A stretch of 61,628 nucleotides of DNA from a virus, in the UHGV virus genome UHGV-1709118; one strand, given 5' to 3'. This document shows positions 1 to 55,758 of the stretch, in pieces. Numbering within the stretch: position 1 is the stretch's first letter; every line of letters starts with the position of its first letter. The notes under the pieces were generated by a model, which was not told where the DNA came from, did no database searches, and saw only the letters and a list, made by a program, of their open reading frames with translations. Both the position numbers and the translations under genes were made by a program.

Positions 1-32
1 ATTACCTCGCGCCCGCTTTCGTTATTGGATAA
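1..32 (+). CDS. 3-prime end of DGR target gene (variable region, partial; gene body upstream of window)
   Basis: 1-15 matches TR 3-prime end attacctcgcgcccg; in the TR-equivalent frame the ORF reads YLAPAFVIG then TAA at 30-32. Confidence 0.55.
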   Translation, partial: YLAPAFVIG

Positions 33-59
33 CTGTAAAGTTACACAGTAAGGTTATAT

Positions 60-87
60 TGGCATTGGCCCTTTTGGGCCAATGCCA
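60..87 (+). promoter_or_regulatory. GC-rich stem-loop just downstream of VR (candidate DGR homing hairpin)
   Basis: perfect inverted repeat tggcattggccc-tttt-gggccaatgcca, 12-bp stem, no U-tract so not a typical terminator. Confidence 0.5.
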
Positions 88-148
88 TAGTATAAAAATG
101 CTTTCACCTTTTCTGGGAAAAATTTTTCTAAAAAAAATTTTTTTTCTT

Positions 149-177
149 TTGACTTTTTAAAAATTTTCTGATATAAT
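149..177 (+). promoter_or_regulatory. sigma70-like promoter upstream of avd-TR-RT operon
   Basis: TTGACT 149-154, 17-bp spacer, extended -10 TGaTATAAT 169-177; RBS aaggagg 197-203 before TTG start at 212. Confidence 0.5.
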
Positions 178-211
178 ATTACTTGTACGTTATTTAAAGG
201 AGGTTTTTAAT

Positions 212-676
212 TTGTCAGTAAGAAAAAAAGATAGGCATCAATCTAAAAATGATTATTTAAATGATGCAAGAAAGTTAGTTCATCAAGTATTGATTTTAGT
301 TCGTCCATATCAAGAATTAGATGATGGTTCTCATATAAAACCAGGCATTCTTGGTAATCCATACTATTATTCAGCCTTTGGCGCAGATATTTTAAAATGT
401 GCTAAAAACGCACATGGATATGCTTTCTCTGCTAGTTTAATCAATCTAAAAAATAAAAAAACTTTAGTTGAAAGAGCGGATTACTTTAATAAATCAATAA
501 GATATTGTGATTCAATTTTAAGGCAATTAGATTTATGTATTTATGAATATGGGTTAAATAATAAAAAGAAAAATAAATCTTTCAAATATGTTGCTAAACT
601 TACTTACAAATTAAAACAAAATCTTCTTGATAGAATAAATAGAGATAATCTAATTTATTCTCAGCGATACAAATAA
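212..676 (+). CDS. DGR accessory protein, Avd-like (accessory variability determinant) candidate
   Basis: 154-aa basic ORF (TTG start with good RBS) located between VR and TR as in avd-TR-RT cassettes; assignment is by position, not sequence identity. Confidence 0.4.
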   Translation: MSVRKKDRHQSKNDYLNDARKLVHQVLILVRPYQELDDGSHIKPGILGNPYYYSAFGADILKCAKNAHGYAFSASLINLKNKKTLVERADYFNKSIRYCDSILRQLDLCIYEYGLNNKKKNKSFKYVAKLTYKLKQNLLDRINRDNLIYSQRYK

Positions 677-699
677 TTTTTTATTCGGTTAAATTCTAA

Positions 700-814
700 A
701 AATATCGCGGGTCTCGCTACTACAACTCGAACAACACGAACAATGTGTGCAATGTCAACTCTGATGGTAATGCGAACAATACCAACTACAACAACAACAA
801 TTACCTCGCGCCCG
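700..814 (+). repeat. DGR template repeat (TR); 5-prime boundary approximate
   Basis: 3-prime end 800-814 identical to window 1-15; adenine-rich with many AAC codons in the VR-equivalent frame and no stop; GC-rich terminal block cctcgcgcccg. Confidence 0.7.
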
Positions 815-1121
815 ATTAGATGAGAACTCTAACTGTCTCTGGTGATGGAGCCGCAGGCGACATCGGCTGAGACGACTAAGTGTTACCCCAGAAAATTATA
901 ACCTATGTTATAACTCATCTATTTTTGGTATTTTCTGGACGCATTGGTTTTAAAACCAAGAAGGAGAGGAAATATTAAATAAAAGACTTAGATTATAATA
1001 GATAGCTTTCATTTAAGGAGAATTTAACCTTTTATCTATACAGATAATTAATTAAGATTGCGGATGTGCGTGTCAGAGCACACAATCTAGCACCGCATGA
1101 TAAAAAAAAGGAGAATTTTTT

Positions 1122-2354
1122 ATAGAAGAAAATCTTTTCCAGCGTTTTTGTAATTTTGACGCTTTTTATGATTCTTCTTATTCTATTTGCCGAAACGTAA
1201 GATGGAAAGATAGTACAGTTAATTTTGAAGAAAATAGATTAAATAACATCTTAACGCTTAAAGAACAATTAGAAAATGACAGTTATGAACAATTAGTTTT
1301 TAACAGTTTTAGTATAATTGAGCGGGGCAAACCTAGAGATATAAGAGCGTGCCATATTTATGACAGATTGGCACAAAATACATTATGTTCGCAAGTTCTT
1401 ATTCCAGAACTAACTCCAAAATTTATTTATGATAATTGTGCTACATTAAAAGGAAAAGGAATTGATTTTGCTTTGCTAGAAGTGCGTAAACATTTACAAG
1501 CAGCGCACAGAACATATGGTTTAGGAAAATCTTTTTATGGTTTAAGAATTGATATTCAAAAATTTTTTGATTCAATAGACCATAATTCTTTAAAGCAAAT
1601 GGCAAAACATTATATTAAAGAAAAACGAGTATTTAAATTAATTGATTATATTATTAATACCTTTTGTTTTTCAGTCACGAAAGATACAGTTCCTATTCCT
1701 GATAAACAATACTATATCATCAAAAAACAAAAATATAAGATAATTTATCCTAAACAATTTTATAAAAATTGTACTTATTATGAATTTAATCATAAAAGTT
1801 TAGGTTTAGGTAGTCAAGCATCTCAATTATTAGCTTTATTGGCATTAAATGGAATTGACCATTATGCAAAAGAGCATTTGCATTTAAAATATTATGGACG
1901 TTATATGGACGATATTTATATTTTGCATAATGACAAAGATTATTTAAAAGAATGTCTTAATAAAATTGAAAATGAATTAAATAAAATACATTTAAAATGT
2001 AACAAAAGAAAAACTAAAATAATTAAAATTAGTCCAATAAAACTAGATAAAAATAATTATCCTCATAAAAGACGTTCAGATAAACATAATCCATTTAAAT
2101 ATTTAAAATGGGATTTTTATTTAACTAATACGAATAAAATTATTCAAACTCCATTTAAAAAGAAAATAAAGCGACAATATAGAAAAATGAGAAAAATGCA
2201 CCAACTTTGGCTACAAGGTAAAATAACTGATATAGAAATTCAAGAATCATATCGAGGTTTTAGAGAACATATAAATAAAGGTACTACTTTTTATATTATA
2301 CAAAATCTTGATAATTATTTCCATTCATTATTTAAAGGAGTTGAAATATTATAA
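1122..2354 (+). CDS. DGR reverse transcriptase
   Basis: ORF track 1368-2354 has YMDD at 1902-1913 and LGSQASQ; open frame continues upstream to stop at 1101-1103 and encodes conserved N-terminal RT region (ERGKPRDIRACHIYDRLAQ); only ATA at 1122 follows RBS aaggaga, no ATG/GTG/TTG before 1368. Confidence 0.85.
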   Translation: MEENLFQRFCNFDAFYDSSYSICRNVRWKDSTVNFEENRLNNILTLKEQLENDSYEQLVFNSFSIIERGKPRDIRACHIYDRLAQNTLCSQVLIPELTPKFIYDNCATLKGKGIDFALLEVRKHLQAAHRTYGLGKSFYGLRIDIQKFFDSIDHNSLKQMAKHYIKEKRVFKLIDYIINTFCFSVTKDTVPIPDKQYYIIKKQKYKIIYPKQFYKNCTYYEFNHKSLGLGSQASQLLALLALNGIDHYAKEHLHLKYYGRYMDDIYILHNDKDYLKECLNKIENELNKIHLKCNKRKTKIIKISPIKLDKNNYPHKRRSDKHNPFKYLKWDFYLTNTNKIIQTPFKKKIKRQYRKMRKMHQLWLQGKITDIEIQESYRGFREHINKGTTFYIIQNLDNYFHSLFKGVEIL

Positions 2355-3013
2355 TGTATTTATTAATCAATAGAGAAAATATAGTAGTCGATATCCTCAC
2401 GGAAATCCGCTACATCAAATTACAATCCAACCCAAGTATTGTCATTGCTTGCTCGGAAGGTGAAGCTACAGGGGTAATAGGCTCAGATTGCAATAGCCAT
2501 TTCATTTTGGCTAATTCAGATATGACAGGTTCTATTGATGCAGTAAGAATTTTATCTTTTGATGGTAATATTCCAGAAGATTATGAACCTAATTTTTATA
2601 AATATGATAATGAAAAAAATGAATTAACATATTACTATTCTTTAGAAGAATACCAAAAAATGAAACAAGAAGAAAATAAAAAAGCTTTCGCTAATTTCCT
2701 TGTTAATCATCCTTTAACTTGGATTGATGGAAAGCAATATGGAGTTACAGAAGAAGACCAGGCAGAAATTAGCCTAAATATGAACCAATATTCTATGGCA
2801 ATTCAAGCTGGAGCCGAGAATCCTAGATTAGAATGGCATGCTCGCCAAGAAGAATGTACATCTTGGACAGTTGAAAATTTGACTGCTTTAACTTTAGCTA
2901 TTTCTGATTTTGTTTATCCTTATTATAGAAAAATGCAACAATATAAAACACAAATTTATACTGCTAAAAATTATAAGGAAATTAAAGCCATAGAATTAAA
3001 ATATGAAAATTAA
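2354..3013 (+). CDS. hypothetical protein, translationally coupled to RT (TAATG overlap)
   Basis: 219-aa ORF; ATG 2354 overlaps RT stop 2352-2354. Confidence 0.5.
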   Translation: MYLLINRENIVVDILTEIRYIKLQSNPSIVIACSEGEATGVIGSDCNSHFILANSDMTGSIDAVRILSFDGNIPEDYEPNFYKYDNEKNELTYYYSLEEYQKMKQEENKKAFANFLVNHPLTWIDGKQYGVTEEDQAEISLNMNQYSMAIQAGAENPRLEWHARQEECTSWTVENLTALTLAISDFVYPYYRKMQQYKTQIYTAKNYKEIKAIELKYEN

Positions 3014-41485: not shown

Positions 41486-41498
41486 AAAGTAATTATTT

Positions 41499-41527
41499 TT
41501 GACAAAACAGAAAAATAATGTTATAAT
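41499..41527 (+). promoter_or_regulatory. sigma70-like promoter for plus-strand early genes
   Basis: TTGACA 41499-41504, 17-bp spacer, TGtTATAAT. Confidence 0.5.
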
Positions 41528-41575
41528 AATTTTAAAGATTAAAGAAAATAACTTTTTAACAAAGGAGAATTAACA

Positions 41576-41923
41576 ATGACTTATCAGGGTTTTGTCAAAG
41601 AAGATTTTCCGCGAGGAACGCAATTTTACTATGGAATTGATATAGTAGAAATTATTTATAGAAAAACAAAAGATCAAAGAAATAAAGTAATTGACTATTG
41701 GGATTTATCTAAAATTACTTCATTTGAGCCTTTTGCTGTTCATATGCGGCAGGCGGATGATTCAGAATTCCGCAAACCTAATAAATTAATTAATGTAATA
41801 GGAAAACCTTTAATGGTTTTAGTTATTTATCCAGATAATTCTATAAATTATTTTTATCCAGAAGAAATTGAAAGTTCTTCTTTTGAAGAAGAGAATGAGG
41901 AGGATTTTGAAGATTATGAGTAA
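41576..41923 (+). CDS. hypothetical early protein
   Basis: 115-aa ORF with RBS aaggaga. Confidence 0.45.
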   Translation: MTYQGFVKEDFPRGTQFYYGIDIVEIIYRKTKDQRNKVIDYWDLSKITSFEPFAVHMRQADDSEFRKPNKLINVIGKPLMVLVIYPDNSINYFYPEEIESSSFEEENEEDFEDYE

Positions 41924-42467
41924 ACCTATTCCAACTTACCGCAATATTTTTTTAAGTGAAGATATTAAAGCAGAATCAGTTAAAAATATTATTGAGACAA
42001 TTATGAAAATTAATTATGATGATGACTGTAAAGAAGAAGATTATAAAGACTGGAAGAGAGAACCTATTAAACTCTTTATCAACTGTTTTGGCGGTAGTGT
42101 TTATGATGGACTTAGCTTAGTAGATGTTATTAAGCAGAGTAAAACCCCAGTCCATACTATTTCTATTGGTTCTAGTATGAGTATGGGTTTTTGGATTTAT
42201 CTTGCAGGCCATAAGAGATATGTAGGTGAACATTCAACTTTAATGTTCCATGATATTGCTTCGTGGATTTGGGATAAAACTGCGGGTATTAAGCAAGAGT
42301 TAGATGAAACACTAAGATTACAAAAAATTATTTGTAAAGAAATTACTTCTACTTCTGCTATTGAGCAAGAGACATTAGATGATTATATTAATAGAAAAGC
42401 TGAATGGTATATTCATGCAGATAAAGCCATTGAATTAGGCTTGGCTAACGGTTATTATAAAAATTAA
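41916..42467 (+). CDS. ClpP-like serine protease
   Basis: segment TISIGSSMSMGFWIYLAG...HDIASW read as ClpP/S14-like by eye (no HMM run); ATG 41916 overlaps previous stop. Confidence 0.5.
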   Translation: MSKPIPTYRNIFLSEDIKAESVKNIIETIMKINYDDDCKEEDYKDWKREPIKLFINCFGGSVYDGLSLVDVIKQSKTPVHTISIGSSMSMGFWIYLAGHKRYVGEHSTLMFHDIASWIWDKTAGIKQELDETLRLQKIICKEITSTSAIEQETLDDYINRKAEWYIHADKAIELGLANGYYKN

Positions 42468-42480
42468 AGGAGAGAAATAA

Positions 42481-43053
42481 ATGAAAAGAAAGTTTCGACG
42501 ATGCGGCCTCATTGCCGCAAGTATTTTTTGTATTTTGACTATGTGCAGTTTCACTACTGCTGAAAAAGCAGCGCAATTAGATAAGGCGCATAATATCGCA
42601 GAAACCGCACGTTCTATGGGATTGCCGGAAAGCGACCCTATTATAACAAGAGCTAAAGAAATTTGGTGGGAAGTGTATAACACTAAAACTTATTCCGATG
42701 AAGATTTGCGAATTCTTGCTACTGTTATTCATTATGAAGCTGGTAATTGCCCGGATCGCCATCAGCAATTAGTGGCGCAAGTAGTTTTGAATAGAGTTGC
42801 AGATTCCAGATTCCCAAGTACTGTTAAGGCTGTTGTTATGCAGCCTCGGCAATATGCCGCATGGTATGTAACTGCAAGACCGCAAATTTCGCAAAGATGT
42901 TATGATAATGCTAGATTGGCGCTTGAAGGTAGGGTTAATTGCCCCAAAAACGTAATTTATCAAGCACAATTTCGCCAAGGAAAAGGAACTTATGAGGTGA
43001 GCAAAGTTGACACAGGTTGGTGGAAGTCTACCACGTACTTTTGTTATGGATGA
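42481..43053 (+). CDS. cell-wall hydrolase, SleB/Hydrolase_2 family, with N-terminal signal/anchor
   Basis: IHYEAGNCP...QVVLNRV...QYAAW...GWWKS motifs typical of SleB-like hydrolases; hydrophobic N-terminus. Confidence 0.65.
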   Translation: MKRKFRRCGLIAASIFCILTMCSFTTAEKAAQLDKAHNIAETARSMGLPESDPIITRAKEIWWEVYNTKTYSDEDLRILATVIHYEAGNCPDRHQQLVAQVVLNRVADSRFPSTVKAVVMQPRQYAAWYVTARPQISQRCYDNARLALEGRVNCPKNVIYQAQFRQGKGTYEVSKVDTGWWKSTTYFCYG

Positions 43054-43288
43054 AACAAAGAAAGCTAGTCAATTACATTTATTAATGACTTGGAATACTA
43101 TGAAGCTGTATTGTGGTGGAAAAATTAAAAGTTTTAAAGAATGGGAAGAAATTGTTAAGGAAAATAGTGCTAAAATAAGTATGCAATATGATAGAAATAT
43201 TCAGCAAGAAAAATTAAGATTGATTAATGAAAGAATTAAGAAACACAATAAATCTATTTATGATTCTAAGGGAAGATTATTAATATGA
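43046..43288 (+). CDS. hypothetical protein
   Basis: ORF track 43007-43288; start moved to first ATG after upstream stop. Confidence 0.35.
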   Translation: MDETKKASQLHLLMTWNTMKLYCGGKIKSFKEWEEIVKENSAKISMQYDRNIQQEKLRLINERIKKHNKSIYDSKGRLLI

Positions 43289-43659
43289 CGATTAATGATA
43301 TACTAAATTTTGCAAATAAATATAATTTGTCTGATGAAGCTAGAGATGAATTAATTACTATGTTTATCTTAAATGATAAAACTAAATTTAATACCACTCC
43401 TTATAATCCTAAATTAGGGCCAAGTGATAGTATTCTGCAAGAAAGTTTGATTTTATCATCGCAAGGAAAAGTATCTTCGGCACCTAAAAAGGTTGTAGTA
43501 TCTTCGCATAAATATAGTAATAACGATAGATTGGCAGGAATTCTTTGCTTGAAGGATAGAAATATTATTGATGAAAAAATTGATTTAATGAGAAAAGGTT
43601 ATTATAGTAATAAAACAAAAAGTAAAACAGGATTAACACCTGTTGTATGGAGGGATTAA
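43285..43659 (+). CDS. hypothetical protein
   Basis: 124-aa ORF. Confidence 0.4.
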   Translation: MTINDILNFANKYNLSDEARDELITMFILNDKTKFNTTPYNPKLGPSDSILQESLILSSQGKVSSAPKKVVVSSHKYSNNDRLAGILCLKDRNIIDEKIDLMRKGYYSNKTKSKTGLTPVVWRD

Positions 43660-43661
43660 AA

Positions 43662-44360
43662 ATGGTAATATGTGGTTTTCCAGGAATAGGAAAAACTTTT
43701 ACAGTTCAAAATTGGATTTATTCAAATATAAAAATTTATGATTCAGATAGTTCAAATTTTTCATGGATTGATAAAAATGACCACTCCAAAGGTCGCAGCC
43801 CAGATTTTCCCGCAAACTATATCGAGTATATTAAATCAATAGATAATGAAAATAGTGTTGTTTTAACAAGTTCGCATAAAGAAGTGCGGGATGCCCTTAA
43901 AGCCGCAGGAATTGACTACTATGTTGTGTACCCCAATTTGGAAAGTTTTGGCAAAGATTTTTATTTAGATAGAATCCGCAGGAGGGAAAACGGCATTAAT
44001 TCTGATTCTTTTGTTTCTTTGATTGCGGAAAATTGTGAAGATTGGATTAGAGATATTGAAGAAACAACAAATAAAGAAAATATTATTGCTATTAATAAAA
44101 ATGCAAAATTAGAGGAAGTTATTTTAAATATTGTTCAGAAAGGAAAAGATATTTTTGTAGTTGAAACTATTTTATATGATGGTAATAATATTTTAGAAAT
44201 AGAAAAATTTTTAGGAAAAAATTACACGATTGCAATAGAAAAAAGGCCCAATGGATATTGTCATATTTATCCTGGAGACATTCGTTTTAAAGTAAATGAT
44301 TGTTTTTGCAAAAGAGACAATGTAATTTGGATAGAAAAGGGAAGTTTTGATGAGGGATAA
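43662..44360 (+). CDS. P-loop NTPase / nucleotide kinase-like protein
   Basis: Walker A GFPGIGKT at N-terminus; ATG 43662 preceded by ggaggg. Confidence 0.5.
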   Translation: MVICGFPGIGKTFTVQNWIYSNIKIYDSDSSNFSWIDKNDHSKGRSPDFPANYIEYIKSIDNENSVVLTSSHKEVRDALKAAGIDYYVVYPNLESFGKDFYLDRIRRRENGINSDSFVSLIAENCEDWIRDIEETTNKENIIAINKNAKLEEVILNIVQKGKDIFVVETILYDGNNILEIEKFLGKNYTIAIEKRPNGYCHIYPGDIRFKVNDCFCKRDNVIWIEKGSFDEG

Positions 44361-44694
44361 CAAATATTTTAAAAATCTTAAAGAAATTCCTTTTCCCTAT
44401 GCGGAAAAAACTTATGCGAAATTAGACCAAAGAGATTGTTTTAATTTGGATACTTCTTTATTTGCTTGGCTTTATGAGCACTTACAGGCTTATTATGATG
44501 AGGCTAGTGTTAGTATTGATTTAATGGAATATAAATATAACATTAATGGAGAAGAACTGAATGAAAAAGAATGTATCTTTAGAATGATTGAAGATTGTAA
44601 AATTATTCTTGACACTTCTGAATATGAAAATTTTGCTGAAAGAAATGATTTATTTGATGTTTTGAAGGAATGTATTTGGAGTTTATGGTATTGA
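44347..44694 (+). CDS. hypothetical protein
   Basis: 115-aa ORF. Confidence 0.4.
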   Translation: MMRDNKYFKNLKEIPFPYAEKTYAKLDQRDCFNLDTSLFAWLYEHLQAYYDEASVSIDLMEYKYNINGEELNEKECIFRMIEDCKIILDTSEYENFAERNDLFDVLKECIWSLWY

Positions 44695-45077
44695 TTTTAA
44701 ATTTCTGCGAAATTTAAAATCAGAAGGAGAGAAAATATTTTAGAAATTCGTTTTTTGAATTTAAAATTGATTTGTATCCTTTTTCAAATTTAAAAATAGT
44801 TTAGAGAGGGAAATGTCCAGGCCAAATGGTTTTTAATAACAAATATAATTTTTTTCCCGAAAACTACCCCGGAGTACGCCAAACCATTAAACTATCTTTC
44901 ATTGGTAAATATCCATTGACCCCACAAAGGCCCCATCAAACAGTATCTTCTGTAAACAACCATTCATTAATCAAAAGAGAAATGATCTTGTCAATAGGCA
45001 AATTAAACAAAATTATTCTTCAGCAAAACGCATAAAGAAGAACTCTTAATTTCTTTTTCTTTTGTTCAATGTGTCAA

Positions 45078-45106
45078 TAGACAAAAGGCTATCTCGATGG
45101 TATAAT
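45078..45106 (+). promoter_or_regulatory. early promoter
   Basis: TAGACA, 17-bp spacer, TGgTATAAT, then conserved leader acagaaattaagg. Confidence 0.45.
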
Positions 45107-45140
45107 AAATACAGAAATTAAGGAAAGGGGTCAATGACCT

Positions 45141-45488
45141 ATGAAAAAGTTCTTCTCTATCATCGCTATTCTAGCAATCACTATCTCTGCTCTCACTACT
45201 TCTGCTTGCGCTCTTAGCACTCCTGCTGAAAATGCCAGATACTGTGCAACAAACAGCATCCACTATGGTATGAATACTGTTCGTCTGGTTCGCGCTACTG
45301 TTACTGCAACTCATGATGATGGATGTGTGACATTGAAAGACATGCGTGATGGCAACCTGTACGCCATTGATGATGATGGCCTTGTGAAAGGTGAGGACGT
45401 TCTCATTGCCATTGACGACAATGCTACACCAGGTTTTGTCTATGATGACATGATTCTTGGCTTCTGGAATGGTTCTGCTCTTAAATGA
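45141..45488 (+). CDS. secreted/lipoprotein-like small protein
   Basis: signal-peptide-like N-terminus MKKFFSIIAILAITISALTTSACA; GC-rich. Confidence 0.5.
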   Translation: MKKFFSIIAILAITISALTTSACALSTPAENARYCATNSIHYGMNTVRLVRATVTATHDDGCVTLKDMRDGNLYAIDDDGLVKGEDVLIAIDDNATPGFVYDDMILGFWNGSALK

Positions 45489-45496
45489 GCAGAACC
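45471..45496 (+). terminator. rho-independent terminator
   Basis: ggttctgctc-ttaaat-gagcagaacc then T-run; stop codon in loop. Confidence 0.55.
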
Positions 45497-45538
45497 ATTT
45501 TTCTTTTTTATTTTATAAATAAATAAATGAAAAAGGTA

Positions 45539-45567
45539 TTGACATTCTGGTTAAGATATGGTATACT
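45539..45567 (+). promoter_or_regulatory. early promoter
   Basis: TTGACA 45539-45544, 17-bp spacer, TGgTATACT. Confidence 0.55.
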
Positions 45568-45594
45568 ATAGATAGTAAAAGGAGGAAAGATCAA

Positions 45595-45798
45595 ATGAAA
45601 AAGACTTTTGAGTTCTATGCTTGCTCACCTGTTAAGACATGGCGAAACAACTACCAGGGAGAAAGTTGGCAGTGGGCTAAAGTTCAATGGTTTCGCTTTC
45701 CTTCTGGTTTGCGCAAGTGCTTAGTCTTTCCTGATGGTCAGGCAATCAAGATTGAACTTTGTAAGGTTAAAAATAAAAGAGAGGTTGGAGAAGTATGA
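45595..45798 (+). CDS. hypothetical early protein
   Basis: 67-aa ORF with RBS aaaggagg. Confidence 0.45.
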   Translation: MKKTFEFYACSPVKTWRNNYQGESWQWAKVQWFRFPSGLRKCLVFPDGQAIKIELCKVKNKREVGEV

Positions 45799-46010
45799 AG
45801 AAATACTGGATAGACAATGAATGTATGATAGATTTTATTGAAATGTATTGTGAGGGTAAAAGCTTTCTATGGAGATGCTTCTTTGGTTGGAGAAAGACTT
45901 CTTTCAAACCTAATGGAGACTTGCACTGGAGAGCTTACATTATACCAAAGAGAATATATCAGAAAGCATTAGTCTTGGCTAAGAAGTATGATGAGTATGA
46001 AGTAGTATGA
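45795..46010 (+). CDS. hypothetical early protein
   Basis: 71-aa ORF overlapping previous stop. Confidence 0.45.
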   Translation: MKKYWIDNECMIDFIEMYCEGKSFLWRCFFGWRKTSFKPNGDLHWRAYIIPKRIYQKALVLAKKYDEYEVV

Positions 46011-46252
46011 TGGGAGAAGAGGTAAGCTTAGCTTATCTCTTTTCTTTTGTTTAATATACTTGTTATAAACGAATGTCTTCGTTTTACAAGGCAACTTTCC
46101 GAATCAGTATACCACAAAGTCTGCTCAAAATCAATAGTCAAAATAGCTAAATTTAGAGAGAGAATTGGGATCCCGAATTGTGCAGTATACCTATTGACCT
46201 ATTGCGGCAAGTATGCTATTATATAATTACAAAAGGGAAGGAGATAAAACAA

Positions 46253-46438
46253 ATGAAGAACATCAAGAAGATCATTGGTGTTAAGATGGACAAAGCTAAC
46301 AAGGCGATCCTTGACAAGTGGAAGGAATGAATCAAAGAAGAGGGCCGCGACAAAGAAAGCAAGAATAACTTCGCTAACTACTACGCTAACTCTTATGAAG
46401 AGTATCAGCAGATTTGGGAAGTGGTTGAATGTTTGTAA
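46253..46438 (+). CDS. small ORF interrupted by a single in-frame TGA (46328-46330); possible readthrough or two short ORFs
   Basis: promoter and RBS upstream; 25 codons, TGA, then 36 further sense codons in frame. Confidence 0.25.
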
Positions 46439-46507
46439 AAAAAAGTCTTGACAAGAAGCTCAGTCTGTGGTATTATATAATCAAGATAAAGAAAGGGGAA
46501 ACAAAAG

Positions 46508-46840
46508 ATGACTAACAAGGAATTATTCGACAGTCGGTACACCGCAACCTACTATGAAAGCGCTTATGTGCTTCACAATGGAGACTTGACTCTCTACTAT
46601 CCCAACTGCGGTTATGACCCTGAGAAAATCATGGTCTGGAAGATCACTGCTGAGGACTACCGCTTTTATGGCAAAGGCGCTCTGAAAGAACTGCTGGAAG
46701 TTCTTTACAAGGAAGCTGCTCCTGAGCTGGTGGCTCTGGTTGATAGTAAACTCCGGTTGGCAACCGATGATGAGGAATGTGCTACGCTTGTTAAACACAA
46801 GTATCCCAACGACAAACAGCACTACATTGATATGTGGTAA
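46508..46840 (+). CDS. hypothetical early protein
   Basis: 110-aa ORF after promoter TTGACA-17-TGgTATTAT. Confidence 0.5.
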   Translation: MTNKELFDSRYTATYYESAYVLHNGDLTLYYPNCGYDPEKIMVWKITAEDYRFYGKGALKELLEVLYKEAAPELVALVDSKLRLATDDEECATLVKHKYPNDKQHYIDMW

Positions 46841-46861
46841 AAAGTAAAGGAGCTGATTAGA

Positions 46862-47083
46862 ATGATAACAATCCTTCACAAAGCAGGTATTGCTTTCAGG
46901 GGAGAATATCTCCGGGAAGCTTGCAGGAAGAACTACGATTGGCTTACTTTAATGTATGCCGTTGAAGATTATAACCGCGCTGTGAAGCGTTACTACAAGT
47001 ATGTTTCTCGCCACCACGCAGTTATCCTTAACAAATATCCTTCTGGCGATGTTATCGCTCTTGAAGAAGGGGTAATTCTATAA
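46862..47083 (+). CDS. hypothetical early protein
   Basis: 73-aa ORF followed by terminator 47084-47104. Confidence 0.45.
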   Translation: MITILHKAGIAFRGEYLREACRKNYDWLTLMYAVEDYNRAVKRYYKYVSRHHAVILNKYPSGDVIALEEGVIL

Positions 47084-47199
47084 GGGCCGCAAGGCCCTTT
47101 TTCTTTTTGTTATATGCTTATATGGTGAAACTTCTAGGCTTCTAGCAGTAAAAAAAAAAAAAAATAAATAAATAAAAATTTTTTTTGTTCAATTTACCT

Positions 47200-47228
47200 A
47201 TTGACAGCAAAGCAAAAGTATGGTATAA
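47200..47228 (+). promoter_or_regulatory. early promoter followed directly by GC-rich hairpin (no ORF)
   Basis: TTGACA 47200-47205, 17-bp spacer, TGgTATAAT 47220-47228; hairpin 47238-47272. Confidence 0.5.
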
Positions 47229-47462
47229 TAATTGCGGCGGCGCGCACACGACCATGGCCTCCCAGTGTGCGCCGAAATTCTGTCAATACGCAAATTGCAC
47301 AAAAATTTAGAGGAAAGTTTGGTGATTTTGCCCAGAAGTATTCATCCCGAAATGGTGTTTGTTTATAAAAAGTATAGCGGCAAAATATCATCAAAATTGA
47401 TTATTGAATTTCTTAAAAATTTTTGTTATAATAATTACAGAAAACAAAAGGAGGTCAAAAGT

Positions 47463-47624
47463 ATGACTGAATACCGTGACTGGTTGGTAGTTTTCCCCAA
47501 TGGTGGACAGATACACTTTGATAACAAGGGTATCGCAATGCGGAACGCGACTCGCAAGAAAGGCTCTGTTTATGAGTGTCATCTGGAAGAGAATGGGAAT
47601 GAAACTCTCATTCATATCTTTTGA
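47463..47624 (+). CDS. hypothetical small protein
   Basis: 53-aa ORF from ATG 47463 with RBS aaggagg; track ORF 47232-47624 N-terminal extension spans promoter/hairpin and is rejected. Confidence 0.4.
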   Translation: MTEYRDWLVVFPNGGQIHFDNKGIAMRNATRKKGSVYECHLEENGNETLIHIF

Positions 47625-47639
47625 TAGGAGGTATTATGT

Positions 47640-47819
47640 ATGAAGCAAACTTATTCTATCTATCATGCTGGCGATGAAGAAATTATCGGGCCTTTTGATT
47701 CCTTTTCATTGGCAGAGGATTTCTTTCATAGGTTAGCTCAGTATGCTACTACAATGTATTACTTGGTAGATGATTCTACTGGTGAAATTCTTCTTGATAT
47801 TGAAGAAATTAAGGCTTGA
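47640..47819 (+). CDS. hypothetical small protein (59 aa, not in ORF track)
   Basis: ATG 47640 preceded by ataggagg; open to TGA 47817-47819. Confidence 0.35.
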   Translation: MKQTYSIYHAGDEEIIGPFDSFSLAEDFFHRLAQYATTMYYLVDDSTGEILLDIEEIKA

Positions 47820-47877
47820 CATTTGGGCCTTACCGTGGTATAATTACCATAGAAACAAAGGAAAGAGGTTGATACTT

Positions 47878-48333
47878 ATGACTGACAAGATGTTGGCTTT
47901 TGATATGGACGGCACTATTGCTGACCTGTATGGAGTTAATGGTTGGCTGTCTAAACTGCGGAAGGAAGATGCAAGCCCTTACCTGGAAGCTAAACCCATG
48001 TGGGATGTGGATAAGCTCAACGAGCTTATCAATAAACTAAAGCAGGCTGGTTGGGAGATTGCAATCATCACTTGGCTTTCTAAAGAAAGCAGTCCTGAGT
48101 ATGCAAAGGCTGTGCGAGAAGCTAAAAAGGCTTGGCTCTTGAAATGGGGTTTCCCCTATGATCATTTTCATGGTCTAAAGTATGGAGCTACTAAAGCGAA
48201 TGCTGTTCGTAGAAAAGCATCTAAGGCAATTCTTATTGATGATAATAAGAAGGTTCGTGATAGTTGGCATTTGGGAGAAACTGTCAATCCTGAAACTTGT
48301 GACATCATTGATTTTTTGGCTTCCCTGCTTTAA
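47878..48333 (+). CDS. HAD-superfamily phosphatase, 5-prime(3-prime)-deoxyribonucleotidase-like
   Basis: N-terminal FDMDGTIADL motif (DxDGT); start at ATG 47878 after promoter and RBS. Confidence 0.55.
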   Translation: MTDKMLAFDMDGTIADLYGVNGWLSKLRKEDASPYLEAKPMWDVDKLNELINKLKQAGWEIAIITWLSKESSPEYAKAVREAKKAWLLKWGFPYDHFHGLKYGATKANAVRRKASKAILIDDNKKVRDSWHLGETVNPETCDIIDFLASLL

Positions 48334-48353
48334 GCAGGGAGTCAAAAAAGTTC

Positions 48354-48382
48354 TTGACAAATGAGAAAAAATCTGGTATAAT
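48354..48382 (+). promoter_or_regulatory. early promoter
   Basis: TTGACA 48354-48359, 17-bp spacer, TGgTATAAT; leader acagaaattaagaaagaggt. Confidence 0.55.
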
Positions 48383-48415
48383 GAGTACAGAAATTAAGAA
48401 AGAGGTAGATGCAAC

Positions 48416-49123
48416 ATGAGCATTGATAGGCGCAGACATTATGTTCTGCTTCTGGACACTGAGACAGCAAACACCATCACTGACCAAAAAGGCCGATTAG
48501 ACATGACCTCAGTTCTTGTCTATGATTGCGGGTGGTGTGTTATGGACACAAGAGGAAATATCTACAAGGAACAATCCTTTGTTAATCGAGATATTTTCTT
48601 TGATGAAAGTGAGCTTATGAAATCCGCCTACTATGCGGAAAAGATTCCCCAGTATCTGGAAGATATTCGACAGGGTATCCGGCAAGTAGCTAACACTTAC
48701 CAGATTCGACAGGCTATGCTTGCAGACATGGCAGAATATGGTATTACAGAGGTAGTTGCCCACAATGCAAGATTCGACCTGAACGCATTGAATTTACTTC
48801 AACGCTGGACTACCAAAAGTAAATATCGCTATTGGTTCCCCTATGGTACCGATATTTGGGATACTCTCAAAATGGCAAGAGACGTTATTCTAAAGATGCC
48901 TACCTATAAAAGGTTCTGTGAACAACACGGTTTCTTAACCAAAACTGGTAAACTCTCAGCGACAGCAGAAAATTTGTATAGATTCATCTCCAAAGACCCT
49001 ACTTTTCAGGAAGAACATAAAGGTCTTGACGATGTGCGAATTGAGCGAGAGATTATGGTCTACTGCTATCGGCAAAAGAAGAAAATGCGGAAAAAACTTT
49101 TTGAAAATCAAAAAACCGCTTGA
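48416..49123 (+). CDS. DnaQ-like 3-prime-5-prime exonuclease (DEDDh)
   Basis: Exo motifs LLLDTETAN, VAHNARFDL, EHKGLDDV. Confidence 0.6.
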   Translation: MSIDRRRHYVLLLDTETANTITDQKGRLDMTSVLVYDCGWCVMDTRGNIYKEQSFVNRDIFFDESELMKSAYYAEKIPQYLEDIRQGIRQVANTYQIRQAMLADMAEYGITEVVAHNARFDLNALNLLQRWTTKSKYRYWFPYGTDIWDTLKMARDVILKMPTYKRFCEQHGFLTKTGKLSATAENLYRFISKDPTFQEEHKGLDDVRIEREIMVYCYRQKKKMRKKLFENQKTA

Positions 49124-49232
49124 CAAAACAAAAGGAAAATGATATAATATAAGAGAAGTGAGGGAGATAAAACCCTCCCCACTTCCTTAACAATTAGGGT
49201 AGCGACCTACCGCACAGAAAGGAATTGATATT

Positions 49233-49589
49233 ATGACTAACGAGAAGAAGATTACTAACAAGGGCGCCCTTCAGTATGTTCTGGACAACTGCGAGATTCC
49301 TGCCGACGTTCGTGCCAAGATTGAGATTCTGCTCCATCAGCAGGAGAACAAGAGCCGCGGTAGTGGTAAGCCTACTGCAACTCAGACTGAGAACGCACGT
49401 CTGATTGAGGTGATTGCCGACACTCTGCCCAAGGGCGAAGCTTTCACCATCTCCGACATTACCAAGACCATTCCTGAGCTGAACGGCTTTACCCCTCAGA
49501 AGGTTGGCCCCATGCTCAAGAAGCTGGTTGAAACTGGTCGAGCCACCCGTGACACCAACAAGGGCAAGGCATACTACACTATGGTGTAA
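49233..49589 (+). CDS. hypothetical protein, paralog of 55318-55734 (possible winged-helix)
   Basis: shared motifs with 55318 ORF (QTEN...LI...KTIPEL...TPQ...PM.K.LV..G.A..DT.KG.A); about 50 percent GC. Confidence 0.5.
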   Translation: MTNEKKITNKGALQYVLDNCEIPADVRAKIEILLHQQENKSRGSGKPTATQTENARLIEVIADTLPKGEAFTISDITKTIPELNGFTPQKVGPMLKKLVETGRATRDTNKGKAYYTMV

Positions 49590-49648
49590 TAATTAAATAA
49601 AGAGGGGCATTAAGCCCCTCTTTATTTTCTCAAAAAGGATGGTGTTTA

Positions 49649-50011
49649 ATGATAGATGAGACTAGGGTTAAACATCTTCAAAAGGTGTTAGACCTTGATA
49701 GAGAACAAGCTTTAGCAGTTATTGCCGATGATGAAGCAATAGATAAAGGTGCAGATCTTTTCCCACTTACTGATGAACAAAAGAAAGTAGAAAAGAAAAT
49801 GCGGTTATCCGGCAAAGAGAAAGGCAAGTATACTATGAATGCTCCCCGACAGCGCAAGGTTGACAATGACAAACATCGCTTGATTGAGATTATTGCGGAA
49901 TCTCTTGAACAACTTGAAATTGAAACTACCATCAATAACCCAGAACGAGAAATTGAGATAGTTTTTAATGAAAGACGTTTCAAAATTACATTAAGCGCTC
50001 CTAGAAAATAA
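49649..50011 (+). CDS. hypothetical protein, paralog of 55759-56148
   Basis: shared DKG...LT-EQ-KV-KK ... LI ... NPER-I ... F ... TL motifs. Confidence 0.5.
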   Translation: MIDETRVKHLQKVLDLDREQALAVIADDEAIDKGADLFPLTDEQKKVEKKMRLSGKEKGKYTMNAPRQRKVDNDKHRLIEIIAESLEQLEIETTINNPEREIEIVFNERRFKITLSAPRK

Positions 50012-50263
50012 TAATAAAACCGGCTTATTTTTTATAGGCCGGTTTTCTTTTTTGCCCAATACTTTTTAATGGCAAATGTTTGACGGCCCGCGCATGGTCA
50101 AGCGCTGCCGCATTTCAATTATACCAGGTAATCCGACTTTTGTCAATGGGCAAACCGCACAATTATTTGACTTTTTGTTTTCCCAAAATTGGTGATTCTG
50201 CCTATTGATTTTTTTATTAAAATTTTATATAATATAATTGTTCCAAGGGAAAGGAGAAACAAA

Positions 50264-50458
50264 ATGAAGATTAATTATAAATCTTTCAGCGTGGAAGTTT
50301 TTGGTGAAAATATTTGGGGCCAAACCTATCTGAACAGAGTAGGCTTTGATTCTGAGGAAGAAGCCGATAAGTTCATTGAATCTCTGGAAAAGGAAGAAGG
50401 AATTTATTCGGCAATTAAAATTGTAAATACAAGTTACAATTTCAGAAAAAACCCTTGA
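50264..50458 (+). CDS. hypothetical small protein
   Basis: ATG 50264 with RBS aaaggaga. Confidence 0.4.
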   Translation: MKINYKSFSVEVFGENIWGQTYLNRVGFDSEEEADKFIESLEKEEGIYSAIKIVNTSYNFRKNP

Positions 50459-50515
50459 CAAACAAACCAAGACGTGTTATAATAAACACAGAAATTAAGA
50501 AAGAGGTTGATAATT

Positions 50516-50737
50516 ATGAAAGCAAGCACTAACACAAAAATCAATATCGACATCACCGGCATCTGCATGTGGTTCCTCTCTTCCCTCTTCATTTGGCTGG
50601 GCTGGAAAGTTCTGGTGGCTCACTTCGGCTTGCCTTACTTTACCTATCTGGAAATCTTCGCCATGCGTATGGGGCTGGATGGTCTTGCAAGCATCTTCCG
50701 CAAGAAAAAAGAAGTGGAAGGCGAAAATAAGGCTTGA
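50516..50737 (+). CDS. small membrane protein
   Basis: 73-aa ORF with hydrophobic core; promoter TTGACA 50455-50460. Confidence 0.45.
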   Translation: MKASTNTKINIDITGICMWFLSSLFIWLGWKVLVAHFGLPYFTYLEIFAMRMGLDGLASIFRKKKEVEGENKA

Positions 50738-50762
50738 CAAACGTCAAGCCGAATGGTATAAT
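50734..50762 (+). promoter_or_regulatory. early promoter with palindromic -35 region
   Basis: TTGACA 50734-50739 inside palindrome ggcttgac-aaac-gtcaagcc (50731-50750); TGgTATAAT 50754-50762. Confidence 0.5.
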
Positions 50763-50786
50763 AATAACAGAAAGAGGTTGATGTAA

Positions 50787-50930
50787 ATGATTTCTACTAT
50801 TGCTCTGGCTTCCCTGGCTGCTATTATGATGGTGAAGGTGTTCGTTGCGGTTGAGCGTGAGGATTACCGCAAAATGTTCGCTAGCGGATTTGAGTTCGCT
50901 CTTCTGCTTCTGACTTTGGCTAATATTTAA
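50787..50930 (+). CDS. small hydrophobic peptide (47 aa, not in ORF track)
   Basis: ATG 50787 after agaggttgatg; open to TAA 50928-50930. Confidence 0.3.
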   Translation: MISTIALASLAAIMMVKVFVAVEREDYRKMFASGFEFALLLLTLANI

Positions 50931-50943
50931 GGAGGTAAATATA

Positions 50944-51192
50944 ATGAGAATTTATTCTATTAAACATCTGTTCGACAAAGAAGTTGCTGGTTTTTATCGA
51001 GAAATGAAAGAAAGCGTTGAAACAAAAGAAGAAGTAGAAAATGCCGTTTATCTGGTAATGGGTATGCAGGTTATGGCAAGTATTATCGCCGAAGGAAGTG
51101 ATGAAGAGGTTCTTGCCATTGAACATGAAACTTGGGATTATTGGATTCCAAAGTTTAAGAAACTTCTGGAAAATCTTCCTGAAAAGACTTGA
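50944..51192 (+). CDS. hypothetical early protein
   Basis: 82-aa ORF with RBS aaggaggt. Confidence 0.45.
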   Translation: MRIYSIKHLFDKEVAGFYREMKESVETKEEVENAVYLVMGMQVMASIIAEGSDEEVLAIEHETWDYWIPKFKKLLENLPEKT

Positions 51193-51217
51193 CATACGTC
51201 AAGTTCTATGATATAAT
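51189..51217 (+). promoter_or_regulatory. early promoter with palindromic -35 region
   Basis: TTGACA 51189-51194 inside palindrome acttgac-atac-gtcaagt (51187-51204); TGaTATAAT. Confidence 0.5.
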
Positions 51218-51248
51218 AAAGCCATAATAAAGAAAGGAAGTCGATATC

Positions 51249-51446
51249 ATGACTAAAGAAGAACTTTTAAACACTTTGCAGGAGGTCGGCTATGAATGGA
51301 GCAGAACGCTCAATGAGCACAAGTATGACTACTCGGATTTCGAGTGGAAGATGCTCGGCTGGGTAGCTGGTGAATTGATTGACCATTTCGATCAGGCAAT
51401 TGATTCAATTCGTGATGAACTTCAGGAGGAGGAAGAAGAAGAATGA
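51249..51446 (+). CDS. hypothetical acidic small protein
   Basis: 65-aa ORF. Confidence 0.45.
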   Translation: MTKEELLNTLQEVGYEWSRTLNEHKYDYSDFEWKMLGWVAGELIDHFDQAIDSIRDELQEEEEEE

Positions 51447-51691
51447 GAATGACAGAAAGAATCGAGAGATTTTTCAATCTTGATGAAGAGGAGAAGGAAA
51501 TTCTCAAAAAGGCTAGTTATATTCTCTGCGACATGGCAGAAAATGTTGATGGTTTAGGAAAAATTTCCTTAACTTATGAGAATTTTACTGAACCATTCGC
51601 AAAAACTCGGAGTTATGATGAAGGGAATCTTTATGATTTCTCATACCTATTAGCTGTTCTTTCTAAGGCAGAAACAATTGAAATTGAATAA
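51443..51691 (+). CDS. hypothetical early protein
   Basis: 82-aa ORF overlapping previous stop; terminator 51695-51719 follows. Confidence 0.45.
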   Translation: MRMTERIERFFNLDEEEKEILKKASYILCDMAENVDGLGKISLTYENFTEPFAKTRSYDEGNLYDFSYLLAVLSKAETIEIE

Positions 51692-51776
51692 AAATAAGGG
51701 CCTTTGGCCCTTATTTTTTACTTGACAGATTTTTCTTTCTATGTTATAATAACAATAGAAAAGGAGATGAAGCAAA

Positions 51777-51980
51777 ATGACAGATTTTGCAAGAACTGAA
51801 ATTCTTCTTAAAGCTTTACAGGAAGCAGGAAGATACATGCGGAAATATTTACCCGCAGAAATGCCATTAGGCGAAGATGCTGATATTACAAGATACTGTT
51901 TAATAAATGGTAATCAAGACCCGGAAGGCTCTAAGTTTGTAGAATACTTCATTCTTAAAGCATTTGATAATTATAAGTAA
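51777..51980 (+). CDS. hypothetical early protein
   Basis: 67-aa ORF after promoter TTGACA 51722-51727 and RBS aaggaga. Confidence 0.45.
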   Translation: MTDFARTEILLKALQEAGRYMRKYLPAEMPLGEDADITRYCLINGNQDPEGSKFVEYFILKAFDNYK

Positions 51981-52226
51981 GGGCTAAAAGCCCTTACTTT
52001 TTTATTTCTATATTTATTATAAACAAAAGTCAAGTGATAGTAAAGTTTGGCGGCGCGTTGATGGCTGACATGCGCCGCAATTTAATTATACCTCAAGCCA
52101 CGCCTTTTGTCAAGAGCAAAAGTGCATAAAAACAAGGCAGACAAAAATCCCGAATTTGTGCATTTCGCCAATAGACAAATAAGACCTGCCGTGTTATACT
52201 ATAATCACAGTAAGGGAGGAGATAAC

Positions 52227-52871
52227 ATGACAGAGATGGAACAGACTGTTCTTCAGTGGCTTGAAGATTTGGCGATTGACCCTTCAATGACCGATTGGGA
52301 CATTCAGAACCGGATGAAAGAGATTAAGCTTGGAAGCGAAGCTGCTATGGATTGCGGTTCTAGCAAGATTTGTCTCATCCCTCACAACGCCAACTTTGTT
52401 ATTAAGTGGACGTATAGCGACCCTGACGAGCTTACCAATGATGAAGCTCTGAAAGAGGTTGACATGTATAACAAAGCTGTCGAAGCAGGTTTAGGCATGT
52501 TCTTCCCCAAGACCGAGCTTTTCTGCACAATGAACGGAATCAATTTCATCAAGCAGGAGAAGATTGATTTTGCGGTTTGTGGCTGTTCCTATCAGACCTT
52601 TAAGCGGTATAAAACCAAGACCAAAACCGCAAGTGACCAGAAAGCGCAACTCATGAACAAGTGCTTCAAGAAAGCGGCTCCTAATGGGCGCTATGCAAGA
52701 AACTTAGACCCTCTTTGGGCTAAGATGGCTCTTGTTATCTATGGCAAAAGACTTTGCAAAACTCTTTGCGAGTTTGTCATTGAGAACAGAATCAATGACC
52801 TGCACGAATCCAACATTGGTTACAAAAATGACCGCCCAATCATCTTAGATTTTAGCGGTTTTGATAGATAA
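52227..52871 (+). CDS. hypothetical protein
   Basis: start at ATG 52227 after RBS aagggaggag; track ORF 52107 start lies in promoter/hairpin region. Confidence 0.45.
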   Translation: MTEMEQTVLQWLEDLAIDPSMTDWDIQNRMKEIKLGSEAAMDCGSSKICLIPHNANFVIKWTYSDPDELTNDEALKEVDMYNKAVEAGLGMFFPKTELFCTMNGINFIKQEKIDFAVCGCSYQTFKRYKTKTKTASDQKAQLMNKCFKKAAPNGRYARNLDPLWAKMALVIYGKRLCKTLCEFVIENRINDLHESNIGYKNDRPIILDFSGFDR

Positions 52872-52876
52872 AAGGC

Positions 52877-52905
52877 TTGACAAAGACCGGACTGTATGGT
52901 ATAAT
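52877..52905 (+). promoter_or_regulatory. early promoter
   Basis: TTGACA 52877-52882, 17-bp spacer, TGgTATAAT. Confidence 0.55.
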
Positions 52906-52937
52906 ACAGGTACAATAAAAGAAAGGAAGTAAAAAAC

Positions 52938-53336
52938 ATGAAAGCTACTGGTATCATTCGCCGCATCGATGACCTGGGTCGGGTGGTCATCCCCAAGGAA
53001 ATCCGCCACAATATGCACATCTGGGAAGGAGACCCTTTGGAGATTTATACTGCTTCGGATGAAATTGTTCTCCGCAAGTATGTTCCATCCGCAGAAAACA
53101 AGGCTTCTATTGCTCAGAAGTGGTTAGAGGACAATGCTCATATGTTATATGGCACTTCTGCAAAGTTCAGTATTGAGGGCAGAACTACTGTTTGCGAAGT
53201 TATCAGCAATAATCATCGCCTGACTGGAAAAGCAACAGCCACAACAAATGACACTTTCATTCCCGCGGTTGGTATGGTTATTGCTTATTGCCGAGCCGTT
53301 GGTTGGACTATTCCCAAAGAACTTATTGAGGATTAA
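52938..53336 (+). CDS. AbrB/SpoVT-family transcriptional regulator-like protein
   Basis: N-terminus GIIRRIDDLGRVVIPKEIRHNMHIWEGDPLEIY...IVLRKY matches AbrB swapped-hairpin domain signature. Confidence 0.6.
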   Translation: MKATGIIRRIDDLGRVVIPKEIRHNMHIWEGDPLEIYTASDEIVLRKYVPSAENKASIAQKWLEDNAHMLYGTSAKFSIEGRTTVCEVISNNHRLTGKATATTNDTFIPAVGMVIAYCRAVGWTIPKELIED

Positions 53337-53658
53337 AAAATTGCAAAAAGGCTTGACAAAGCTCTTCTTCTGTGATATAATACAAGTACAGTCAAGGGAG
53401 GTGATAAAGTGCTTTAGTGGTAAACAAATGAATAAAAAGGAGTAAAGCGAATGATAGATATTACTAGACACCCGCCGCCATGCTAACCCAATTATTACAG
53501 AATTTTGTTTGCACTGTTGTTTTACATGAACGAAATAAAACCATATAGTGCTGCGGAGATTTTCTTAGCTTTTTCTATTGCTCCAAAGTAATAAACAACA
53601 AGAAAGCTATCAGAGTAGGCGCCGCTCTGATAAAATAAAACAAAAGGAAGTTTTACAA

Positions 53659-53946: not shown

Positions 53947-53990
53947 GTAAAAGCATGATATAATAACAATAGAAAACAGGAAAGGAATTG

Positions 53991-55734: not shown

Positions 55735-55758
55735 GGCCCTCTTCCCTAGAAGGGAGGT

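Follow-up and report, generated by a model that had tools for sequence, protein, structure and literature searches.

The question raised by this locus is what a perfect GC-rich hairpin is doing immediately behind the variable region (VR) of a phage DGR. To our knowledge, essentially a single system, BPP-1, has been used to dissect how a DGR recognises its target. There, a GC-rich hairpin with a GRNA tetraloop near the VR is needed for efficient homing (PMC3240598), and the uncultured phage family considered here, known mostly from human gut metagenomes, offers a natural comparison for this rule. We analyzed a stretch of 61,628 nucleotides from the virus genome UHGV-1709118 (the whole of which is called the window below) together with its relatives. 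An earlier note, made from the letters alone, had proposed that a hairpin at 60-87 and the GC-rich block before it define the 3' boundary of homing. On the basis of the present results, we give a probability of about one half to the reading that this hairpin is a lineage-specific variant of the hairpin/cruciform that flanks DGR VRs, which would enhance homing without being required for it. The element is thus placed as a variant of the known DGR hairpin in an uncharacterised phage DGR, and is not a new kind of system. The features of the locus are as follows.

1-15, + strand: 3' end of the VR, identical to TR positions 801-815
5-15, + strand: IMH-like GC block (CCTCGCGCCCG), identical to TR positions 805-815
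16-32, + strand: VR-specific 3' flank (CTTTCGTTATTGGATAA), coding for the target C-terminus, with no homology to the TR flank
22-51, + strand: weak AT-rich hairpin with the stop codon inside (fold TTATTG..TAACT-GTAA-AGTTA..CAGTAA)
43-59, + strand: putative motif remnant (ACACAGTAAGGTTATAT), resembling GGRCAGTAnnGATTAAA
54-95, + strand: extended form of the hairpin, a fold of 18 bp with a 2-nt bulge
60-87, no strand assigned: perfect palindrome hairpin (TGGCATTGGCCC / TTTT / GGGCCAATGCCA) with a 12-bp stem
149-177, + strand: sigma-70-type promoter for avd-TR-RT (TTGACT-17-TATAAT, 11/12 matches, extended TG)
212-676, + strand: Avd-like accessory gene, 154 aa, with a predicted helical-bundle fold
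about 710-815, + strand: adenine-rich template repeat (TR), ending in the GC block of the VR
816-925, + strand: structured TR-flank domain, in which ATTAGATGAG pairs with CTCATCTA about 90 nt downstream
1122-2354, + strand: DGR reverse transcriptase (RT), matching RVT_1 and phrog_1423

The cassette is arranged in the order VR end, hairpin, sigma-70 promoter, Avd-like gene, TR and RT, and is a genuine and active DGR, so that the context assumed by the earlier note was borne out. Among 12 related sequences (separate metagenome contigs that are 1-4% divergent over 3 kb, with two pairs identical there), 227 of 248 TR/VR mismatches were located at TR adenines. Almost every related sequence had its own VR, and one VR was common only to the identical pair L001/L136. 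The target ORF ends in ...YLAPAFVIG* with the stop TAA at 30-32, and its frame was confirmed on the whole 594-aa gene in the near-identical IMG/VR contig L001 (3130-4914). The IMG/VR contigs L004, L005, L014 and L018 start inside the VR, probably due to population-level VR heterogeneity that breaks assemblies. Sequence-family searches with the ORF at 212-676 found no match. The AlphaFold model of its product (pLDDT 91.8) gave the 23S-IVS/S23 four-helix-bundle proteins 2RLD and 2GSC as best structural matches (target TM-score up to 0.84), and we are confident in predicting from this model an Avd-like four-helix bundle.

The RT frame is open from 1104 and in-frame ATG, GTG or TTG codons are absent from the window before 1368 (codon 83); therefore, the RT probably starts at ATA 1122, 8 nt past a Shine-Dalgarno sequence (GGAG). 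The A-run 5' of this Shine-Dalgarno (window 1091-1125) is A8 here, and A5, A7, A8 or A9 were observed among near-identical phages when the same site was compared in L001, L062 and L136-L145. The conserved upstream ATG falls in the RT frame only with the A7 run, and the RT lengths given by gene callers are 328, 371, 418 or 436 aa according to A-run length. Such differences could stem from noise in the sequencing or from neutral variation, or slippage at the run could control RT expression.

Among named phages, megablast of window positions 1-2400 gave no match, and tblastn of the RT found only relatives of at most 34% identity, too distant for comparing flanks. A metagenome scan with the 17-mer CTTTCGTTATTGGATAA returned 109 stretches, almost all of them chance matches, L062 being the sole relevant one. 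The RT search of genome contigs gave one 2.9-kb contig (from an Eubacteriales MAG bin) that lacks the VR, and no host was inferred from it. Stop-codon recoding was also considered for the window and rejected, as 87% of it is covered by ORFs with the standard code, and no signs of recoding were present in its own lineage. The avd and RT genes of L002-L025 (for example, L007: 5055-5560 and 6001-7190; about 60% RT identity) carry many in-frame TAG codons; since these align with Gln of the window proteins, these lineages appear from sequence to read TAG as glutamine.

Where does variation end? Window position 1 is the last adenine site that varies in the 12 related sequences, and positions 2-15 are invariant. 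The GC-rich block at the VR end is the same in the TR, limits adenine mutagenesis on the 3' side and is followed by VR-specific or TR-specific sequence. Because an invariant shared block is combined with distinct VR and TR flanks, positions 5-15 behave as an IMH-like GC block, a reading that is well supported by the alignments and had already been offered in the earlier note. The other half of that proposal fared differently: the GC block marks the 3' limit, and the hairpin does not define it. Both the GC block and the TR flank ATTAGATGRR are kept in most lineages examined and are found as recognisable variants in the most distant ones, and the VR flank CTTTCGTYATYGG is kept in most related lineages, with variants in L149, L157, L159, L161, L163 and L164. 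In L062 (ERZ1023658 NODE-134), a G-to-A change in the GC block (at the equivalent of window position 11) is present both in the TR and in the VR. This sequence pattern suggests a natural co-conversion marker, by which transfer from TR to VR would reach at least as far as that base on the 3' side.

Two further elements lie between the GC block and the palindrome. The weak AT-rich hairpin at 22-51 is not conserved in other lineages and is one pair longer in L001. The sequence directly 5' of the palindrome (43-59) looks like a degenerate remnant of GGRCAGTAnnGATTAAA. A non-coding motif GGRCAGTAnnGATTAAA(A/T)T is conserved between VR and avd, 30-45 nt past the target stop, in L002-L025, L004, L147, L151 and L154; in L007, the motif and a weak promoter match (TTCAAA-17-TAAAAT) overlap.

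The perfect 12-bp stem with its tttt loop and without a U-tract was recovered from the sequence, the folds and the terminator scan just as first described. Eight of the 12 pairs are G-C, there is no mismatch, the loop has 4 nt, and the GC content of the stem is 67%, compared with 32% for the genome. By itself, the hairpin has a DNA folding energy of -15.5 kcal/mol; within a 71-nt context the fold gave z = -5.0 (DNA) and -5.2 (RNA), and none of 200 shuffles was as stable, so the folding check turned out in its favor. The outer 6 bp of the extended stem at 54-95 are A/T-rich and include one G.T pair. The hairpin does lie past the target stop, at a distance of 27 nt (33-59) instead of the 28 nt given before. 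It starts 44 nt after the GC block and is separated by 61 nt from the avd promoter; the 44 nt are counted from the end of TR/VR homology and become 23 nt if a BPP-1-like 21-bp IMH tail is allowed. A T-run beside the hairpin was absent on both strands (tails TAGTATAAAAAT and ATATAACCTTAC), the hairpin was not flagged by the terminator scan of the window, and an Rfam search of positions 1-1200 gave no family at E <= 0.1.

We also measured how such a structure compares with the rest of the window. Perfect stems of at least 12 bp are expected 0.1 times per window in Markov simulations, which excludes a chance origin of the hairpin; 17 are present. Perfect stems of at least 9 bp number 31 against 4.3 expected, and thus a strong hairpin as such is ordinary for this genome. 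Nearly all of these stems have A-run/T-run arms and are terminator-like; they adjoin the next promoter directly and look like bidirectional terminators. About 15 canonical T-run terminators are located within the same window. What is unusual in this genome is a GC-rich palindrome that has no T-rich 3' side and lies 61 nt from a promoter. Elsewhere in the window, positions 41490-59060 contain near-consensus promoter families (TTGACAAA...TATAAT), with the common leader ACAGAAATTAAGGAAAGAGGT behind them, in at least nine repeats, and many of these promoters come directly after a perfect A-run/T-run hairpin, forming an early-region array of terminator-promoter modules. Positions 61163-61288 hold a tandem 42-nt unit (AAGCACCTCTCCATTTTAGAATATTTTAAGAGATTTTATTAT) in two exact copies and one degenerate copy, behind a hairpin at 61078-61105.

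These features bear on an explanation at the RNA level, in which the hairpin acts within the 3' UTR as an atypical or weak terminator, as a site of pausing or of RNase III-type processing, or as a stem-loop that protects the 3' end; it would insulate late transcription of the target gene from the avd-TR-RT unit and have no role in homing. We consider this explanation, the main rival, rather unlikely, at odds of about one against three. The position fits, with the stop codon 27 nt before the hairpin and a strong promoter 61 nt behind it, the RNA fold around the hairpin is very stable (-30 kcal/mol, z = -5.2), and perfect hairpins serve as terminators throughout the genome. However, the U-tract is missing both here and in the sister lineage L164, the scan passed over the hairpin in a window that has its canonical terminators, and the usual terminator-promoter modules of the phage are contiguous instead of being 42-61 nt apart.

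Three sister lineages share the layout of stop codon, hairpin, homologous promoter (TTGACT-17-TATAAT in each of them) and avd, with hairpins that differ in sequence:

Window (Avd -): CATTGGCCC tttt GGGCCAATG (core); 27 nt past the stop, 44 nt past the GC block, 61 nt to the promoter
L146 (Avd 66%): ..GGGCGGCCC gca GGGACGCCC..; 28 nt past the stop, 45 nt past the GC block, 54 nt to the promoter
L163 (Avd 57%): GGGGCGCCC gaa GGGCGCTCC; 45 nt past the stop, 62 nt past the GC block, 42 nt to the promoter
L164 (Avd 54%): GGGGCATCC gga GGATGCCCC; 67 nt past the stop, 84 nt past the GC block, 44 nt to the promoter

When the four hairpins were anchored at the loop, 97.8% of cells could pair and seven of nine pairs had changed on both sides, and shuffle and slide controls of the same alignment gave far lower pairing. 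It should be noted that the alignment was anchored by hand and that every row was already a hairpin; the result therefore shows maintenance of a stem at a homologous position and is not a blind discovery of structure. The stem is kept by selection at this place in the four-lineage sub-clade. The two C-G pairs next to the loop are conserved in all four lineages, and the sister loops (GCA in L146, GGA in L164 and GAA in L163) consist of 3 nt and read C(GNA)G on the sense strand.

The same comparison adds to both sides of the RNA-level explanation. The hairpin is present in all four lineages that have the TTGACT-17-TATAAT avd promoter, TTTT stands directly behind the L146 hairpin, and one of the four hairpins (L163, marginally) passes the terminator scan. 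In addition, the L163 stem contains one G.T pair, which is tolerated on the sense strand only. Termination, however, would leave the sense-strand C(GNA)G loops of the sisters unexplained.

Within the species-level lineage itself, all 24 stem positions were identical in 13 near-identical sequences (the window included), although the background divergence behind this invariance is only 1-4%. Invariance of this kind would also suit a DNA-level element apart from homing, such as a dimeric-regulator site, a supercoil-sensing cruciform or a self-maintaining palindrome. The perfect 28-bp dyad with an A/T centre agrees with such an element, and template switching can create or maintain perfect stems and invert their loops (PMC8794818). 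We nevertheless regard it as improbable. The dyad is centred about 110 nt ahead of the likely start of transcription, too far for an ordinary operator or activator site, and the half-site occurs seven times in the 61.6-kb window at up to two mismatches, against 4.6 expected, with the two arms themselves as the only exact matches. A repeated-operator reading was rejected, as the half-site is not repeated elsewhere in the 61.6-kb window beyond chance. Moreover, the sisters keep pairing and not sequence, which argues against both a sequence-specific protein site and pure neutrality.

Beyond the sub-clade, the picture was different. The GC-rich hairpin after the VR was absent in L002-L025 (L004-6 included), L147/148, L151-155 and L158, in which the VRs are clearly diversified. 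Conservation in related DGRs, which the earlier note had suggested examining, thus holds for L146, L163 and L164 and fails for these lineages, and one of the findings that the note had named as speaking against its reading, a missing hairpin beside active VRs of relatives, was partly made. At best, they have weak A/T-rich stems after the VR (DNA z from +0.95 to -2.7), and their VR-to-avd spacers are short (64-119 nt). At least five lineages show A-specific VR diversification and have no GC-rich hairpin; the hairpin is therefore dispensable for homing in this DGR family. The short-intergenic lineages without a hairpin also lack a comparable promoter on the + strand (L007 has only a 9/12 site), a co-occurrence that the RNA-level explanation would account for; on the other hand, L007-type lineages may have a weak promoter and are still without a hairpin.

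Different long GC-rich stems (TGCGGCC...GGCCGCA), near avd rather than the VR, were found in L149, L157, L159 and L161. They are located 40-90 nt upstream of avd (L149: 2296-2352; L157: about 2345-2414; L159: about 850-880; L161: about 870-917), and, because of two G.T pairs, the L161 stem would be functional only on the sense strand. An additional small hairpin (GGCCGAG-cta-CTCGGCT) is present in L157, 3 nt past the stop, and upstream of avd an A-rich fragment resembling the TR (..CAACAACTACAACAAC..) is carried by L157 and L161. Homology of the window hairpin with the TGCGGCC...GGCCGCA stems of these four lineages was considered and found unconvincing.

The loop proved to be the variable part of the hairpin. 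Among the 13 near-identical sequences the sole difference in the hairpin was a reverse-complemented loop, which was AAAA in nine and TTTT in four (the window, L140, L143 and L145). TTTT occurs on three local flank haplotypes and at three places of the neighbour-joining tree built from the 3 kb downstream. Its presence on three haplotypes implies that the loop was inverted repeatedly, or that recombination took place within about 60 nt, and recurrent flipping or very local recombination is the simplest reading of this distribution. All four TTTT sequences carry the A8 run about 1 kb downstream; a single TTTT origin spread by linkage was rejected, as L138 combines AAAA with A8 and TTTT is found on more than one flank haplotype. 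An assembly artefact is unlikely and was rejected as well, considering that the 12-nt arms are shorter than the usual assembly k-mer and that both states were seen in independent samples and assemblers.

Hairpin-loop inversions are known in plastid non-coding DNA. Inversion of a loop between perfect arms is a signature of replication template switching (PMC8794818). It follows from the inversion that pairing of the arms on a single strand evidently occurs in vivo, and that the loop is without strand-specific constraint, in contrast to BPP-1; indifference to loop orientation would equally be expected of a terminator or stability stem acting in RNA. For comparison, a control palindrome 1.9 kb upstream (L001: 2999-3032; 15-16 bp, perfect, with a TTTT loop and then a T-run, within the divergent region that precedes the target gene) had no flips in 10 sequences versus four TTTT in 13 here, a sample too small for significance. 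TR/VR mismatches numbered 18-20 with TTTT and 13-23 with AAAA, and VRs were uniquely diversified in both; no difference in DGR activity between loop states was visible in the TR/VR mismatches of this small sample of 12 sequences.

Two further readings of the flips seem very improbable to us. The first is a non-neutral flip, a reversible heritable toggle that would tune the efficiency with which the receptor-binding protein is diversified, which is conceivable because the BPP-1 loop acts in a strand- and sequence-dependent manner. In the second, the flips would be scars of DGR-associated nicking and repair synthesis beside the extruded hairpin, which would explain why they occur here and in none of the 10 sequences at the longer palindrome 1.9 kb away. 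If either the toggle or the scar were true, the dynamics of a DGR target hairpin in vivo could be read from a natural polymorphism for the first time.

The TR flank was predicted to be free of an equivalent hairpin. A perfect palindrome comparable to 60-87 was indeed absent after the TR, and the fold of the TR flank gave z = -2.85 versus -5.0 at the VR. The flank is not bare, however, as a conserved and covarying stem-loop domain is present. Between the paired segments ATTAGATGRR and YYCATCTAAT (about 90 nt apart) lies a stem-loop that is capped by a C(GNA)G triloop, located 20-45 nt past the GC block of the TR. Compensatory change was detected in nine of 22 pairs across 10 lineages (the window, L002, L004, L007, L146, L147, L149, L151, L154 and L161). 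This domain would belong to the DGR template RNA, probably as its priming or spacer domain. A related possibility, which we again regard as very improbable, is that the RT-Avd complex recognises a single type of G-N-A-capped hairpin on the TR flank as RNA and on the VR flank as DNA.

Taken together, we favor the VR-flank hairpin as the reading of 60-87 because it comes after an active VR, has a selected stem, has sisters with G..A loops and is built unlike the terminators of the phage. When the phage DNA is negatively supercoiled or transiently single-stranded, the palindrome would extrude into a hairpin or cruciform, a step for which the recurrent loop inversion gives indirect support. Together with the GC block (5-15) and the VR flank (16-28), it may mark the VR, and not the TR, to receive the adenine-mutagenised cDNA. 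As in BPP-1, it would make homing more efficient, and the integration point would be set in the GC block instead. Its A/T loop may have been inverted repeatedly by template switching across the perfect arms and would carry no strand-specific information. The hairpin would be an enhancer-type accessory of one sub-clade and not something that this DGR family universally requires. Against the VR-flank hairpin stand the non-consensus invertible loop, the distances of 44-84 nt, the absence in active relatives and the co-occurrence with the promoter. The homing hairpin and the RNA-level explanation are not mutually exclusive. A role of the hairpin in homing, as claimed in the earlier note, is plausible. 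Its loop is TTTT or AAAA, and GRNA on the sense strand, on which BPP-1 critically depends, is missing.

The family is informative in three respects. First, a hairpin has been kept by selection in one sub-clade, three lineages of which have G-N-A loops on the sense strand. Second, one species-level lineage has exchanged the G-N-A loop for a freely flipping A/T loop. Finally, several sister clades diversify their VRs without any such hairpin. This suggests that the hairpin serves as an efficiency module that is optional, and that dependence on loop sequence is not universal, which should be useful for re-targeting DGRs as mutagenesis tools and for predicting VR boundaries. The interest of the locus is modest, and lies in the natural loop-flip polymorphism and in the evidence that members of a single DGR family can do without the hairpin.

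How closely does the element resemble known systems? DGR target hairpins described previously have a GC-rich stem of 7-10 bp and a 4-nt GRNA loop on the sense strand and are located 4-34 bp from the VR end; their structure is conserved with free sequence, and in BPP-1-type DGRs no equivalent inverted repeat follows the TR (PMC3240598). The BPP-1 hairpin, which is 25 nt from the GC block, extrudes in supercoiled DNA and is needed for efficient homing; changing its loop from GAAA to CTTT nearly abolishes homing, and stem extensions are tolerated with a progressive fall in activity (PMC3240598). Like the BPP-1 and other phage hairpins, the present one combines a GC-rich inverted repeat and a 4-nt loop, comes after the VR and its GC-rich IMH, has no equivalent palindrome on the TR side, where a covarying stem-loop domain lies, and belongs to a sub-clade whose members keep the pairing and vary the sequence. 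Unlike them, it has a stem of 12 bp instead of 7-10 bp, and its loop is TTTT or AAAA and naturally invertible instead of sense-strand GRNA; the GRNA consensus is missed by the window loop, with the G..A polarity kept in the sister loops. It also differs from BPP-1 in being 44 nt past the GC block (45, 62 and 84 nt in the sisters) instead of 25 nt, in having the stop codon outside the stem and in being absent from many close relatives with active VRs, and its function is a predicted one. In contrast with the IMH of BPP-1, the flanks of VR and TR that follow the GC block are unrelated here.

GRA triloops have been reported in the target hairpins of nanoarchaeal (DUSEL4) DGRs, which are located inside the target gene (Paul et al. 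2015, PMC4372165). The sense-strand triloops GAA (L163), GGA (L164) and GCA (L146) at the homologous position are similar to these, whereas the archaeal hairpins are intragenic and the window loop is a 4-nt A/T loop. Guo et al. (2011) likened DGR targets to terminator-like stem-loops such as those targeted by group IIC introns (PMC3240598). With Rho-independent terminators and group IIC intron targets, the hairpin shares a stable GC-rich stem-loop soon after a stop codon; it differs from the terminators in having no U-tract and in its build, which is not that of the genome's own terminators. Finally, as in the template-switch loop inversions described by Monttinen and Loytynoja (2022, PMC8794818), the loop is reverse-complemented and the stem is unchanged; what differs here is that the inversion is a standing polymorphism of one DGR-flanking palindrome, carried on three haplotypes in a phage population.
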